From: a virus
Direction: 5' to 3' (one strand)
Length of the DNA: 47,960 nt
UHGV virus genome: UHGV-1380525
Made by a program: the position numbers and the translations under genes. Numbering within the stretch: the stretch's first letter is position 1; each line of letters opens with the position of its first letter. Under the pieces are notes generated by a model. It was not told the origin of the DNA and ran no database searches. It saw nothing but the letters and a program-made list of their open reading frames with translations. Positions 1,543 through 30,462 of the stretch are shown here, in pieces.

Positions 1543-1636
1543 TGGTTAAAACCTCCATTTAGTTAGCCTAATCTAAAGTCTAACTCAAGATTAGAAGCAA
1601 GTAAAACAATACTTCCATCGGTATTATCCTGAGGCA

Positions 1637-1664
1637 TTTTACATGGTAAATAATGCAGTATAAT
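1637..1664 (+). promoter_or_regulatory. sigma70-like early promoter (TTTTAC -16- TATAAT)
   Basis: Read directly in the AT-rich region 1543-2170. Confidence 0.5.
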
Positions 1665-1681
1665 CATTAACTTAGAAGTTG

Positions 1682-1710
1682 TTGACTTTTTTCCATGCAA
1701 GTGTATTATG
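1682..1710 (+). promoter_or_regulatory. sigma70-like early promoter (TTGACT -16/17- TATTAT, with TG upstream of the -10)
   Basis: Near-consensus -35 and -10 hexamers. Confidence 0.6.
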
Positions 1711-2110
1711 ACTTACATTAAGTAATGAATAATTTCTATATCCCGAACGTCAGATTTAGAAAGTCATTCAAAACGATGTAACTAAATGATTTTACTTAAT
1801 ATTTTTCTAAAGAACCGAAAAAACACCGAAACACCAAAATCATCAACAAGAAAAAACCCACCTCGCTACACATGAAATTCACATCATTTTAGAACTTTAG
1901 GCCCGCAAGCCGCATGGTTGCTGGGTTTCTTAAAGTCACAAATAAATCCTAATGAAATCTTTCGGGAAATGCCTATAAGATACTTTTTTTACATCAGTGA
2001 CTTACATATTTTTTTAATATAAAAAATAGACTTTAAAACCTCTTAGAGATATAGTAACGCACGTTACAAAACTATTAGCTTGCTATTGTTTATTTATTTT
2101 CACCATCATA

Positions 2111-6135: not shown

Positions 6136-6234
6136 CTGATTTATAATAATCAATGCGGCTAGGGGGCACCCGAAAAGCGACTCATCACCGCCTGCCGCAT
6201 TCACTTCAATGATGCCCTGATGAGGAATCTATAT

Positions 6235-27494: not shown

Positions 27495-27874
27495 GAGATA
27501 TGCTTGAGCTTGTTGACCAGTACCTTAGCGATGCCGGTCTTTATGATGGGTGGACTTCTCAGTTTGAGTTCTGGAATGATACCGAAGTTGGCACAGACCG
27601 GTTCATGGTGCTGCAATCCAATGGCGGCACGAACGTAAGCAAAGGACTCGGCGGCGATTACTATTTTTCACTCTATGTTGTCGGCCAGCAGGGTCAGTAC
27701 AACATCGAGGAGACAAAAGCAAAAGCGCTTGATGTCATCTCATACATCAAAGAGCATCCCGTTGATAGTTGCATTGGCATGATTCAGCTACAGGCGCCGC
27801 TTGGTCGTCCAACACTCACTACAGAGCAGAGGCCAGTTTATGAGTTGTTGCTGAGGGTTGTTTTTGGTGAGTGA
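27491..27874 (+). CDS. tail completion/terminator-like protein, 127 aa
   Basis: Position upstream of the tail tube region. Confidence 0.45.
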   Translation: MRDMLELVDQYLSDAGLYDGWTSQFEFWNDTEVGTDRFMVLQSNGGTNVSKGLGGDYYFSLYVVGQQGQYNIEETKAKALDVISYIKEHPVDSCIGMIQLQAPLGRPTLTTEQRPVYELLLRVVFGE

Positions 27875-27951
27875 TGGTTCCCGCGACAGGATTCGAACCT
27901 GTAATCATCCGATTATGAGTCGGGTGCTTTAACCAGTTAAGCTAAACTGGA
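27875..27951 (-). tRNA. tRNA-Met(CAT): tRNA-Met/Ile2-like (anticodon CAT) with a degenerate acceptor stem
   Basis: Hand-folded cloverleaf: D-stem GCTT/AAGC, anticodon loop CTCATAA, T-arm ACAGG-TTCGAAT-CCTGT, encoded CCA. Two acceptor pairs (4-69 A.G and 7-66 U.C) are non-Watson-Crick. Confidence 0.55.
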
Positions 27952-27954
27952 ATT

Positions 27955-28031
27955 TGGTGCACCATTCAGGATTCGAACCTGAAACCCAGAGGATAGAAGC
28001 CTCTTGCGCTATCCAATTACGCTAATGGTGC
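27955..28031 (-). tRNA. tRNA-Arg(TCT): tRNA-Arg (anticodon TCT)
   Basis: Acceptor GCACCAT/ATGGTGC is perfect. Anticodon stem AGAGG/CCTCT with loop CTTCTAT. T-loop TTCGAAT. CCA encoded. Confidence 0.85.
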
Positions 28032-28037
28032 TGAATG

Positions 28038-28125
28038 TGGCGGATAGTACAGGATTCGAACCTGTGAACCGTTTCCGGTTTATCGGTTAGCAACCGACTG
28101 CTTTCGGCCTCTCAGCCAACTATCC
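28038..28125 (-). tRNA. tRNA-Ser(GCT): tRNA-Ser (anticodon GCT), type II with a long variable arm
   Basis: Acceptor GGATAGT/ACTATCC. Anticodon loop TTGCTAA. 16-nt variable arm. T-arm ACAGG-TTCGAAT-CCTGT. CCA encoded. Confidence 0.85.
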
Positions 28126-28715
28126 GTATGTGCCTTTCTCACTCTCCCGACTAAATCGTAACATTGGGAGACTACGCGACCATTTGGTTTCTGCTATCAG
28201 CGTCATCAGGCGTAGTGTGTTCCGACCCGGATGCCTACTTGAAAGGCGGTGGTATCGTATGCTCGTTGTGTGGTGGCAGGTGCTGATATCCTGCTTGATG
28301 GTGAGCACCTCGTCTTAGGAGGCTATCTGTAACGTTGCCATCGCGTATCCTCTTTGCGCATCAGCCTGCGCATTCACCACAACGGAAAGAGCACTGAACG
28401 CTGCATTATGGCTCTATCTCAGCTGCGCCGACTGCAGTCCCGATATGACCAACCACTGAGAGGGTATCTGCCAATTACTTTTATGCTCGGTCAATGCTCT
28501 TACCTGTTGTGTGCCCATTATTAATCACACCGGGCCAGTGCGCCGAATTCATTGACAAGGATTCGGAAGACCTTGCTGGTGTTTAGCCGTTAGGCTACTG
28601 CCAGATACATTTCTTCGTTTGCATTTATCTTTGTGGTCAGTTTCTAAAAACCCGCAAAGTCGCACCGAAAACTATCTGACATTTAATCTACACCACCAAT
28701 AAAAACCTGTCAACA

Positions 28716-28724
28716 TGATATAAT
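28716..28724 (+). promoter_or_regulatory. extended -10 promoter TGaTATAAT for the major tail gene. The AATCTACACCA module variant lies at 28685-28695.
   Basis: Read directly. Confidence 0.6.
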
Positions 28725-28758
28725 GCGATTGTTTAGCTAAACACAGAGGATTCTAAAC

Positions 28759-29511
28759 ATGGCTATTTGTGCAAATGATAACGGCATCATCACAGGTCGC
28801 CAGTCGCTCATTGAGCTGGCTGATGGCTGCTGGGATGCTGTGCCAGCAGAGGAAGATTGGAAGTTTTTTGCCCCCATGACCTCAAAAGGCGTCGACTTCA
28901 GCCCAAGCACCACCACTTCTGAGGCTGACGATGGCGATGGCTTTGTTGCAACGCTGGTAACTACCGCAGACCTCACCATTTCCGGTGATTTTGAAGTTCG
29001 CAAGGCTGACAAGGCTGATGAGTATGGCGTGCACAACCTCATCAAATACTTTGTCACCGAAGTAAAAGCGCGTCGCCAGCCGTCGCTGTGGGTTCGCCAG
29101 ACCACCGGTAATACTGTTGTCGTGGCTTACTGCAACATTACCGCTCTGAGCTACGATGGCGGCACCAACGACATCATCACCGGCTCTGTTGAATTCAAGC
29201 CGTATGATGGCTCTACCGTTGACGTGTCCAGCATCGAAGACCTGACGCTGACTACTGATATCAGCGCAACAAAAAGCGTTGCCACTGGCGACACTCTGAC
29301 GCTCGGTCCGGTGGTTGCGGCTGGCGGTGTAGAGCCTTATACCTACCAATGGTATAAAGGCACCACGCCGATCAGCGGTGCTAATACCGACACGTTCACC
29401 AAGGCCACTGCTGCCACAGGTGATGCTGGTACGTACTTCTGCCGCGTGATGGACTCGGCAACCAGTCCTGATTACGTTGACTCTACTAAGTGTGTCGTCA
29501 CCGTGACCTAA
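28759..29511 (+). CDS. major tail (tube) protein with a C-terminal Ig-like (Big_2-type) domain
   Basis: Position upstream of the chaperone and tape measure genes. C-terminal TLGPVVAAGGVEPYTYQWYKG...GTYFCRV is the Ig-like signature also seen on lambda gpV. Confidence 0.75.
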   Translation: MAICANDNGIITGRQSLIELADGCWDAVPAEEDWKFFAPMTSKGVDFSPSTTTSEADDGDGFVATLVTTADLTISGDFEVRKADKADEYGVHNLIKYFVTEVKARRQPSLWVRQTTGNTVVVAYCNITALSYDGGTNDIITGSVEFKPYDGSTVDVSSIEDLTLTTDISATKSVATGDTLTLGPVVAAGGVEPYTYQWYKGTTPISGANTDTFTKATAATGDAGTYFCRVMDSATSPDYVDSTKCVVTVT

Positions 29512-29718: not shown

Positions 29719-29980
29719 CATTCTCCTCTCTGATTGCAGCATCAAGTTGTCGACGCAACATACACAGCGCGCCATGCGGCATAAACTGATTAGCCATGCC
29801 ATCGAATATCTGCCGGTTTAATTTATTATCAATCCGCGGCCTTATTGCTGACCAGCATGCCCTGATTGCGTGATTTACAGGTCTGCGGTCCAGCATTGCG
29901 AGTCGTGCAGCTAACTCAATGGTAACGAGCGCATCAAGATACTGCTCGCAGGCGTAGCGATTTTCGTTATCCATCATCAT
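29705..29980 (-). CDS. hypothetical protein, 91 aa
   Basis: ORF track. ATGA-coupled to the HNH gene. Confidence 0.5.
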   Translation of the reverse strand: MMMDNENRYACEQYLDALVTIELAARLAMLDRRPVNHAIRACWSAIRPRIDNKLNRQIFDGMANQFMPHGALCMLRRQLDAAIREENDDDS

Positions 29981-30462
29981 TTACCATGGTTCTCATGAAA
30001 ATTATACTTAACCTCCGCCTTTCTCCTTGCTTCAGCGGCCATATTTAAGTCAGAAAACAATCCAAGATGAATCTTTACGCCATCAACTTTTATGTTTGAG
30101 GCCCATTTTTTATGTTGCTTATCCCATGAAACACCAGTAACACCTGATTTGTTTGTCACCCTGAACTTCATGTTGTGATTATTCTCTTTTGGAGTGACAA
30201 GCCTGAGGTTATCTATCTTATTGTTTGTTTTATTGTGGTCTATATGATCAATCTGCATTCCGTCAGGAATTTTCCCATTATGCATTTCCCAGATGATGCG
30301 ATGAACAAGATACTTGAAGCCATAGATTCCAACAATCTTATATCCATTACCTCCTACCGCCTTCACCTCGCTTCCTATTTTCACTCTGTTTGAGGTTCTT
30401 ATCTTCCAGTAAATAGCCCCATCACAATAATAAAAAATATCTGACCAATCAGTTATTTTCAT
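29977..30462 (-). CDS. free-standing HNH homing endonuclease, paralogue of 10586..11068
   Basis: HRIIWEMHNGKIPDGMQIDHIDHNKTNNKIDNLR. AP2-like C-terminus GVSWDKQHKKW. Confidence 0.85.
   Translation of the reverse strand: MKITDWSDIFYYCDGAIYWKIRTSNRVKIGSEVKAVGGNGYKIVGIYGFKYLVHRIIWEMHNGKIPDGMQIDHIDHNKTNNKIDNLRLVTPKENNHNMKFRVTNKSGVTGVSWDKQHKKWASNIKVDGVKIHLGLFSDLNMAAEARRKAEVKYNFHENHGK

Follow-up and report, generated by a model that had tools for sequence, protein, structure and literature searches.

What occupies a stretch of 633 bp that holds no credible open reading frame (ORF) and lies between a tail gene and a cluster of transfer RNA (tRNA) genes is the question raised by the viral genome UHGV-1380525. 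The window is the whole 47,960-nucleotide (nt) stretch of DNA that was analysed, and all coordinates are positions in it. It belongs to a Klebsiella siphophage and is ≈ 99% identical to phage DP01 over the 1-kb stretch that was compared. The gap extends from 28126 to 28758; the major tail gene starts at 28759 on the plus strand, and close relatives of the window carry no annotation in this stretch. We find that the gap holds a conserved RNA of ≈ 165 nt on the minus strand, here called TAG RNA, which contains a short reading frame of the type found in transfer-messenger RNA (tmRNA), the RNA by which bacteria rescue ribosomes. With high confidence we identify it as a tmRNA-derived message module within an operon of non-coding RNAs (ncRNAs) and tRNAs.

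The gap and its conserved RNA

An earlier reading of the sequence (the original prediction) had described the gap as lacking credible ORFs, rich in inverted repeats and abutting the tRNA cluster. The first and last of these points hold. The longest ORFs are two frames of 62 amino acids (28120-28308, minus strand; 28130-28318, plus strand). Both were said to overlap tRNA-Ser, which is true of the minus-strand frame (by 6 nt) and not of the other. ARAGORN and Rfam both find three minus-strand tRNAs next to the gap. The two repeats that had been named exist as well, at positions other than those first given (AGGTGCT/AGCACCT at 28278-28284 and 28304-28310; TGCGCA-tcagcc-TGCGCA at 28355-28372). A richness in inverted repeats beyond chance was not borne out: relative to dinucleotide shuffles, the minimum free energy (MFE) had z = -0.25 for the minus strand and -1.38 for the plus strand. 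Since the gap folds no better than shuffled sequence, its stem-loops are no signal in themselves, and single-sequence thermodynamics was uninformative. Of the stem-loops listed, only the TGCGCA hairpin proved to be part of a conserved structure. The evidence for an element in the gap comes instead from comparison with other phages.

A blastn search with the 633-bp gap matched 833 of 50,697 phage records, and the core alone (≈ 28510-28678) matched 775 of the 50,697, from unrelated families, at 72-100% identity. The phages that carry it include Felix O1 and many other members of Felixounavirus, Ackermannviridae (Kuttervirus, Taipeivirus), N4-like Schitoviridae, P1-like phages, lambdoid phages (for example, HK633) and the window's own relatives. 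The matching segment is almost always without an annotated feature and almost never annotated as RNA. A protein gene in relatives had been named as the outcome that would speak against an RNA; most of the hundreds of relatives are unannotated here, and a few carry only a "hypothetical protein". The conserved segment is made up as follows.

28513-28677, minus strand: TAG RNA, a tmRNA-like message module (conservation and covariation)
28629-28659, minus strand: 5' hairpin CUUUG...CAAAG enclosing GUUU-UUAG-AAAC (alignment A3)
28590-28622, minus strand: tag frame GCA AAC GAA GAA AUG UAU CUG GCA GUA GCC UAA, encoding ANEEMYLAVA* (frame conservation)
28576-28604, minus strand: equivalent of tmRNA helix 5, CUGG...CCAG enclosing UAGCC-UAAC-GGCUA, with the stop codon in the loop (covariation)
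28543-28575, minus strand: H-type pseudoknot PK2 (covariation)
28513-28542, minus strand: H-type pseudoknot PK3 (RNAalifold and covariation)

AUAAAU stands directly before the tag frame, which is the context of resume sites in tmRNA, and by sequence reading there is neither an in-frame start codon nor a Shine-Dalgarno sequence upstream of it. We gathered 128 copies by a DNA pattern from IMG/VR and the phage records, representing 34 distinct frames. The frame is open and then closed by a stop codon in all 128; it has 10 codons in 127 copies and 14 in the remaining one. Every distinct frame has a hydrophobic residue 6 and Ala at codon 10 (GCC 14, GCT 12, GCG 7, GCA 1), and the stop codon varies (TAA 31, TAG 2, TGA 1). 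Entropy peaks at third codon positions (1.26 versus 0.85 and 0.72). The frame is under selection, and this pattern marks it as a tmRNA tag frame and distinguishes it from an ordinary small gene. Tags of relatives include ANDDVVLMAA, ANDEQFLAVA, ANDNVFLAVA (Felix O1), ANDNTFLAVA and similar peptides; the E. coli tmRNA tag is ANDENYALAA. An alternative frame initiated at AUG (AUG CAA ACG...) was rejected because neither its length nor its sequence is conserved.

The covariation analysis used alignment A3, which holds 52 TAG sequences in RNA sense. From its 5' segment (GAUAGUUUUCG..GCGAC) onwards, the RNA consists of the hairpin, the tag frame, helix 5 and the two pseudoknots, in that order. The outer helix of the 5' hairpin is 88% paired, with UUAUG/CAUAA variants, and the inner one is weakly supported (74% paired). 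This hairpin occupies the position of tmRNA pseudoknot 1, upstream of the resume codon; no covarying pseudoknot partner was found for it, and a brute-force search of column pairs for extra helices was overwhelmed by phylogenetic signal. The outer helix of the helix 5 equivalent is 96.5% paired, with compensatory changes in 4/4 pairs (for example, GC 30 / AU 19). PK2 consists of a hairpin, CAAGG...CCUUG (28575-28556), whose loop CCGAAU (28566-28561) pairs with AUUCGG (28548-28543); stem 1 is 98% paired (CG 26 / UA 25 at one pair), and stem 2 is paired in every sequence (100%), each of its four counted pairs showing compensatory changes. PK3 is formed by CGCACU (28542-28537) with GGUGUG (28531-28526) and by GCCC (28535-28532) with GGGC (28516-28513), and its loop AUUAAUAAU is conserved. 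RNAalifold recovered stem 1 (CG 36 / UA 8 / GC 7 at one pair), and stem 2 shows compensatory changes in 4/4 pairs. The covariation score of the whole structure was 0.249, compared with 0.132 for shuffles (0 of 500 reached the observed value) and 0.06-0.10 for slid controls. Covariation against related phages, the check proposed at the outset, thus backs the TAG folds.

The compensatory changes, which tolerate G-U pairs, are strand-specific. The orientation relative to the tRNAs is also fixed: by ARAGORN, the tRNA strand relative to TAG is the same as in the window in 6/6 loci, and Rfam agrees for 5. Together with the codon-periodic frame, these observations point to an RNA on the minus strand and lend no support to the cis-acting DNA site that had been offered as one option. 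Back-to-back promoters, one of them putative, do occupy 28685-28724, as a replication, packaging or regulatory element at the DNA level might have it, but strand-specific compensation and constant orientation speak for RNA. A degraded protein gene fares no better, as relatives have no protein gene here beyond an occasional short "hypothetical protein" and the only codon-periodic frame is the 10-codon tag. We give a DNA element or a decayed gene next to no credence. A plus-strand RNA was considered as well, because annotation tables put the tRNAs on the plus strand, and was rejected because ARAGORN and Rfam put them on the minus strand; the tables for phages Pollock (L004 in our list of loci) and VpaE1 (L005) have the tRNA strand wrong by both programs.

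Of 5,426 complete E. coli genomes, 780 contain the TAG core; plasmids account for 683 of the sites and chromosomes for 150. Among the phage-plasmids that bear it are P1-like ones (≈ 90-100 kb) and others of 105-112 kb. In the lambdoid prophages examined, TAG has the Q antiterminator gene on one side and the holin gene on the other and lies on the strand of the late transcript. A scan of 185,579 species-representative genomes gave 11 pattern matches, only six of them true copies, all in Enterobacterales; we rejected the other five as chance matches inside coding sequence of unrelated metagenome-assembled genomes. TAG is thus found in classic model phages and, chiefly on phage-plasmids, in 14% of the complete E. 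coli genomes, and it is missed by the standard pipelines (ARAGORN, Rfam/PGAP). It accounts for the unannotated gaps that recur beside phage tRNA genes and, in lambdoid prophages, between Q and the lysis genes, and it provides a simple search pattern for annotation.

Kinship with tmRNA and possible roles of TAG RNA

TAG RNA resembles tmRNA (SsrA), and especially the two-piece tmRNA of phages, in its AUAAAU-GCA resume codon, its short tag with a hydrophobic/Ala end, the stop codon in the loop of helix 5, the H-type pseudoknots after the tag and its site among phage tRNA genes. It differs in lacking the acceptor stem with G3-U70, the T-arm, the D-loop/T-loop pair and CCA, in having no more than two pseudoknots 3' of the tag and, at the position of pseudoknot 1, a plain hairpin, and in being limited to phages and prophages of Enterobacterales. 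Two phage contigs found by the same pattern, L073 and L089, are genuine circularly permuted two-piece tmRNAs with a T-arm, G3-U70 and ACCA ends (acceptor stems GGGGCCG/CGGCUCC-ACCA and GGGGGCG/CGCCUCC-ACCA, respectively). ARAGORN calls both as tmRNA, and Rfam scores them at 117.7 and 92.4 bits. They carry the same resume and PK3 motifs as TAG, and sequence reading of L073 gives the same a-b-a'-b' layout of PK3. A circularly permuted two-piece tmRNA is also carried by the Methylophilales phage Melnitz (PMC9004378). We consider TAG homologous to the message part of tmRNA, with the coding piece of phage two-piece tmRNAs as its closest counterpart, and read it as a descendant of such a coding piece, now without the acceptor half. 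The "structured ncRNA" of the original prediction was right in general terms. What it missed is the nature of the RNA: a tmRNA-type tag module with pseudoknots, followed by a tRNA-shaped module (module B, below) that resembles STnc100.

Origin as a fragment of host ssrA left by faulty excision was rejected: only 13 nt at the tag start, GCAAACGA(A/C)GAAA, match E. coli ssrA, no ssrA was among the matches listed in the E. coli-wide blastn search, and TAG also occurs in strictly lytic phages. The known phage or prophage RNAs considered (svsR, Pas small RNAs (sRNAs), GOLLD/ROOL-type and Y-RNA-like RNAs) were rejected for want of an Rfam match; svsR, moreover, maps to cI, and Pas sRNAs all carry terminators. 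Published surveys report phage tmRNAs in mycobacteriophages, Bacillus phage G and marine phages and the tRNA-domain-only form of DS6A. Those we examined contain no tag-only form and none of the TAG-bearing phages among their phage tmRNAs, and the literature searched yielded no match for the tag peptides or for phage tmRNA-like RNAs of this type.

Our overall explanation, which we judge probable, is that the TAG homologue of the tmRNA message lies in a minus-strand ncRNA/tRNA operon, is released by processing and acts in ribosome rescue. TAG RNA would be co-transcribed with the tRNAs, cut from the precursor by host tRNA-processing enzymes at acceptor-like stems and at the tRNAs, and act in ribosome rescue during phage growth. 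Its most likely role would be that of a tagging template on stalled ribosomes, adding the 10-codon, degron-like tag ANEEMYLAVA, with the tRNA-like function supplied by a partner such as an adjacent tRNA-like element or the host tmRNA-SmpB machinery. This template function is a tentative assignment, and we hold it with less than even confidence.

Several results weigh against the explanation. ARAGORN finds no tmRNA in the window or in nine related loci (L002-L010), and Rfam makes no tmRNA call at gathering level in the same set; no tRNA-like domain was detected there, though positive controls scored strongly. By eye, neither flank of TAG contains a tRNA-like domain (acceptor stem with G3-U70, A73 and CCA), and there is no GGUUCGA-type T-arm in 28126-28760, the three tRNAs aside. 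Classical trans-translation is therefore impossible with TAG RNA alone, and by the defining features TAG is not a member of the tmRNA family. The proposed Rfam search of the TAG segment (28513-28677) gave matches to tmRNA models only, all far under gathering score: RF04321, "permuted tmRNA", at 26.2 bits (E 0.0057) and RF00023 at 11.7 bits, the gathering score being 47 for each. We found no significant complementarity to E. coli tmRNA, and pairing with host tmRNA was rejected since the duplex energy was equalled by 22 of 200 shuffles. No constant partner accompanies TAG, none of the nearby candidates being universal. Finally, the codon-level pattern partly overlaps helix 5, which constrains the same bases.

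Similar weak tmRNA matches were obtained in phages T751 and FEC14, including beta_tmRNA over the pseudoknot region. The GUUUUCG in the 5' segment of TAG loosely resembles GGAUUCGAC, a likeness seen by eye and without statistical backing. A "permuted tmRNA" call in a Felix-like locus (L108) was rejected because it borrows neighbouring tRNAs.

The coding-type constraint argues that the frame is read by ribosomes, which needs a tRNA-like entry device that TAG lacks. That TAG RNA is a working template reaching the ribosome without a tRNA-like domain of its own is, in our estimate, rather unlikely; there are two ways in which it could do so. In the first, TAG would be half of a new kind of split tmRNA, with the acceptor half separate or attached 3'; candidates are the flanking acceptor-like stem ending in U-CCA, module B and a G3-U70 RNA of Felix O1-like phages. 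In the second, the structure would drive internal entry at GCA, yielding a free ssrA-like degron peptide that competes for ClpXP/SspB. If TAG is a working template, Felix O1, P1-like, lambdoid and Vi01-like phages would re-program ribosome rescue or proteolysis through an unannotated RNA. tmRNA is defined by the joining of a tRNA-like domain to a message, and a message-only version that is widespread and maintained by selection would be a new form. Dependence on host tmRNA is known for Mu and for some lambda-P22 hybrid phages, and such a version would offer an experimental route to the question of how phages affect ribosome rescue.

The main rival is a decoy: TAG would mimic the message and pseudoknot part of tmRNA, titrate SmpB, S1, RNase R or the ribosome, and so damp or redirect host trans-translation in infection. 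The lack of a detectable tRNA-like domain fits this reading, as does strong conservation of the AUAAAU-GCA resume context and the PK3 loop at the nucleotide level. There is a precedent in mycobacteriophage DS6A, which carries a tRNA-domain-only tmRNA discussed as a tmRNA inhibitor (PMC4131195, PMC11915505). The two phage RNAs are alike in being half a tmRNA, which suggests that phages can exploit one half alone. They are mirror images, however: DS6A keeps the tRNA-like domain and has no tag, whereas TAG keeps the tag and pseudoknots without the tRNA-like domain and would be the counterpart of the known form. Pure binding, on the other hand, needs no frame of fixed length, no synonymous Ala codons and no interchangeable TAA, TAG and TGA stops, and we regard a decoy as unlikely. 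The remaining rivals (a decaying relic, a processing scaffold and the DNA site considered above) are lesser ones.

A relic would be a phage tmRNA pseudogene, deprived of its former tRNA-like domain and carried along by a mobile tRNA module. Remnants resembling a tRNA domain do lie near TAG in Ackermannviridae (T-arm plus CGGCUCCA) and in L102, a close relative of the window (T-arm plus GGAUUCC-A-CCA), and the modules have clearly been shuffled by recombination. Yet 0 of 128 frames are broken, compensatory changes maintain three helices and two pseudoknots, and TAG is retained in compact lytic genomes (Felix O1, N4-like). The 93-96% identity between unrelated Klebsiella phages, indicating recent transfer of an intact unit, likewise speaks against decay, which we consider very improbable. 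As a working reading, we retain the maintained, tmRNA-derived message module.

The proposed operon, its spacer and module B

All features of the gap lie on the minus strand, as do the tRNAs, with the exception of a putative divergent promoter. In the order of the proposed operon, the sigma-70 promoter and TAG RNA are followed by the stem-closed spacer, module B, the leader and the three tRNAs.

28685-28713, minus strand: sigma-70 promoter of the ncRNA/tRNA operon (consensus scan, 10/12 matches)
28378-28511, minus strand: stem-closed spacer (inverted repeat I1; MFE fold)
28269-28381, minus strand: module B, a tRNA-shaped RNA (alignment A4)
28126-28268, minus strand: leader between module B and tRNA-Ser, 143 nt
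28038-28125, minus strand: tRNA-Ser(GCU) (ARAGORN; Rfam)
27955-28031, minus strand: tRNA-Arg(UCU) (ARAGORN; Rfam)
27875-27951, minus strand: tRNA-Met(CAU) (ARAGORN; Rfam)
28716-28758, plus strand: possible divergent promoter (TGATATAAT, extended -10, at 28716-28724) and 5' untranslated region (UTR) of the tail gene (by eye)

The promoter consists of a -35 element, TTGACA (28713-28708), a 17-nt spacer and a -10 element, TAGATT (28690-28685). The leftward promoter module noted earlier at 28685-28695 corresponds to this -10 element. The predicted transcription start is near A28677/G28676. The same promoter is kept in close relatives (L102), and Felix O1-like phages have an equivalent, TTGACA-17-TATAGT, directly upstream of their TAG copy. 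The possible divergent promoter, with what may be the 5' UTR of the major tail gene, was not called by the promoter scan.

The three tRNAs score 55-65 bits with Rfam, and a terminator scan gave no terminator-like site between the promoter and the tRNAs. As the gap shares the strand of the tRNAs and lies between them and a promoter, with no terminator-like site, it is most simply part of the tRNA precursor, so that the suggestion of a leader or precursor for the three tRNAs was broadly right. The arrangement is that of a phage tRNA operon (same strand, upstream promoter, no intervening terminator), from which co-transcription is predicted. T4 offers a parallel: its species 1 and 2 RNAs are small stable non-tRNA RNAs that are encoded within a tRNA cluster, co-transcribed with phage tRNAs and freed by tRNA-processing enzymes. 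The T4 RNAs differ in that they are not known to carry a tag frame.

The spacer is closed by an interrupted helix in which CACAAC-A-GG-U-AAGAGCAU (28511-28494) pairs with GUGCUCUU-U-CC-GUUGUG (28394-28378). Its interior of 99 nt is variable and is swapped between relatives. The stem resembles a tRNA acceptor stem followed by U-CC(G/A), and some spacers hold T-arm-like hairpins. Arrays of the 3' and 5' stem motifs are present in lambdoid prophages, in P1-like phages and in relatives of the window. A 3' motif pairs with the following 5' motif across the variable spacer in 89% of cells, 30 of them compensatory, with stem variants such as AAGGCAAU/GUUGCCUU and AAGGGUAU/GUACCCUU. The alternative that the GUGCUCUUUCC and GGUAAGAGCAU motifs close each module was rejected, since pairing across modules amounts to 74% as against 89% across the spacer. 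Stem-closed spacers are probable processing elements that would release the modules.

On the scaffold reading, the whole region would be a long leader whose structures do no more than guide tRNA maturation, stability or dosage, and the resemblance to tmRNA would be historical. In keeping with this, TAG and the tRNAs have their strand and promoter in common, the modules are bordered by acceptor-like stems with U-CC(A/G) after them, and in several of the phage families examined TAG lies inside or beside tRNA clusters (Felix O1-like, N4-like and P1-like phages and the window's group). In several lambdoid prophages, however, where TAG is placed between Q and the holin gene, there is no tRNA in the vicinity, the tag frame is under coding-type constraint, and the pseudoknots are conserved far beyond the needs of a spacer. 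We consider a scaffold role alone improbable.

Module B begins and ends with a closing helix, UGUGGUG/CACCACA (28381-28375 with 28275-28269). Within it, a 5' hairpin, GCGC-AGGCUGAU-GCGC (28371-28356), corresponds to the TGCGCA repeat mentioned above, and a 3' hairpin, GCAGG-AUAUCAGCA-CCUGC (28294-28276), abuts the closing helix; the centre is variable. The hairpin loops are complementary to each other, which makes the overall shape tRNA-like. Alignment A4 comprises the conserved ends of 32 distinct copies, with the variable centre replaced by a 5-nt linker. In it, 96.9% of cells are paired and 8 pairs show compensatory changes, compared with 1.5 in shuffles; in L061, two loop-loop pairs are changed on both sides. 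Because diversity is low and the copies were selected by pattern, the support from A4 is moderate. Module B lies downstream of TAG in 43 of 111 loci, and on this count we rejected it as an obligatory acceptor partner.

By inspection, module B shares with the STnc100 consensus the closing helix (UGGUGAAU...CACCA), a 5' hairpin and a 3' hairpin abutting CACCA. STnc100 and PasD are prophage sRNAs of the Q-to-lysis region (bioRxiv 10.64898/2026.05.13.724894), and module B occupies the same neighbourhood in lambdoid prophages, between Q and the lysis genes. It differs from both in having no intrinsic terminator and in its mutually complementary hairpin loops. In the window, no STnc100 (RF02076) match was obtained at E ≤ 10 within 27500-29200, and module B has no terminator-like site. 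Nothing in the STnc100/PasD literature describes the TAG module. In phage T751 (L002), a true, unannotated STnc100 match (1600-1814, minus strand; 48.8 bits, gathering score 47) lies downstream of TAG, module B and leader. Escherichia phage vB_EcoM-813R1 (L003, P1-like) has four diverged 5' parts of module B near 1330, 1578, 1828 and 2001, in the form of a ≈ 45-nt motif (GUGCUCUUUCCGUUGUGGUGAAUGCGC...) around tRNA-Asn and tRNA-Thr genes; this motif is > 90% identical in unrelated temperate phages of Pseudomonas, Erwinia and E. coli.

At the start of the leader stands a shortened 3' stem motif, CACAAC-GAGCAU, and the leader is common only to Klebsiella phages DP01 (99%) and T751 (98%). Although T751 belongs to a different family, Ackermannviridae, its TAG, module B and leader are 93-98% identical to those of the window, and replacement is confined to the interior of the spacer and the central part of module B. 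Such identity across families, with swapped interiors, indicates that the unit moves horizontally.

Acceptor-like elements and other features

The candidates for a tRNA-like entry device, which lie near TAG in one lineage or another, are the acceptor-like stem-closed elements, module B, a tRNA-like RNA of Felix O1-like phages, a conserved block in Ackermannviridae and the T-arm of L102.

In Escherichia phage VpaE1_ev035 (L005, Felixounavirus), an odd tRNA-like gene of 82 nt lies directly 3' of TAG (1961 to 1880, minus strand). It has C1-G72, G2-C71, G3-U70, A73, an encoded CCA, a T-arm and no clear D-arm, and its anticodon-type loop is CUUCUAA (UCU). The acceptor stem thus resembles the alanine identity set, whereas the anticodon is of Arg type. 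Rfam scores it as tRNA at 31.7 bits; ARAGORN is silent.

A block of ≈ 165 nt lies 3' of TAG in Ackermannviridae (stretch 2540 to 2260 of L007 and its equivalents in L006, L067, L085 and L104) and is nearly invariant. It ends in GGGUUCGACUCCCUAAAACGGCUCCA(C/U)AU, a conserved T-arm plus a tmRNA-like acceptor 3' strand, the CGGCUCCA mentioned above, with no CCA. Some of these genomes have an extra tRNA-like unit between this block and TAG, with a GAAA-capped hairpin and CUCCAAU-C-CCA, and 2.5-3.3 kb beside the tRNAs are entirely unannotated in these loci.

L102, an IMG/VR contig, carries a different module set at the same operon position, ≈ 400-520 nt 3' of the TAG start. One module of this set has a module B-like start and a canonical T-arm end, ACCGGUUCGACUCCGGU, followed by A-GGAUUCC-A-CCA. 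This suggests that modules are exchanged by recombination at conserved stem motifs.

Two further observations concern the window outside the gap. Rfam places an int-alpA RNA (RF02996) at 6152-6215 on the plus strand (42.6 bits, gathering score 35.8). Downstream of the major tail gene, an ORF of 161 amino acids lies on the opposite strand (29977-30462, minus); inspection by eye shows an HNH-like motif, DHIDHNKTNN...N, and, in the C-terminal part, a resemblance to an AP2-type DNA-binding domain. The ORF probably encodes a homing endonuclease and has inserted among the tail genes.

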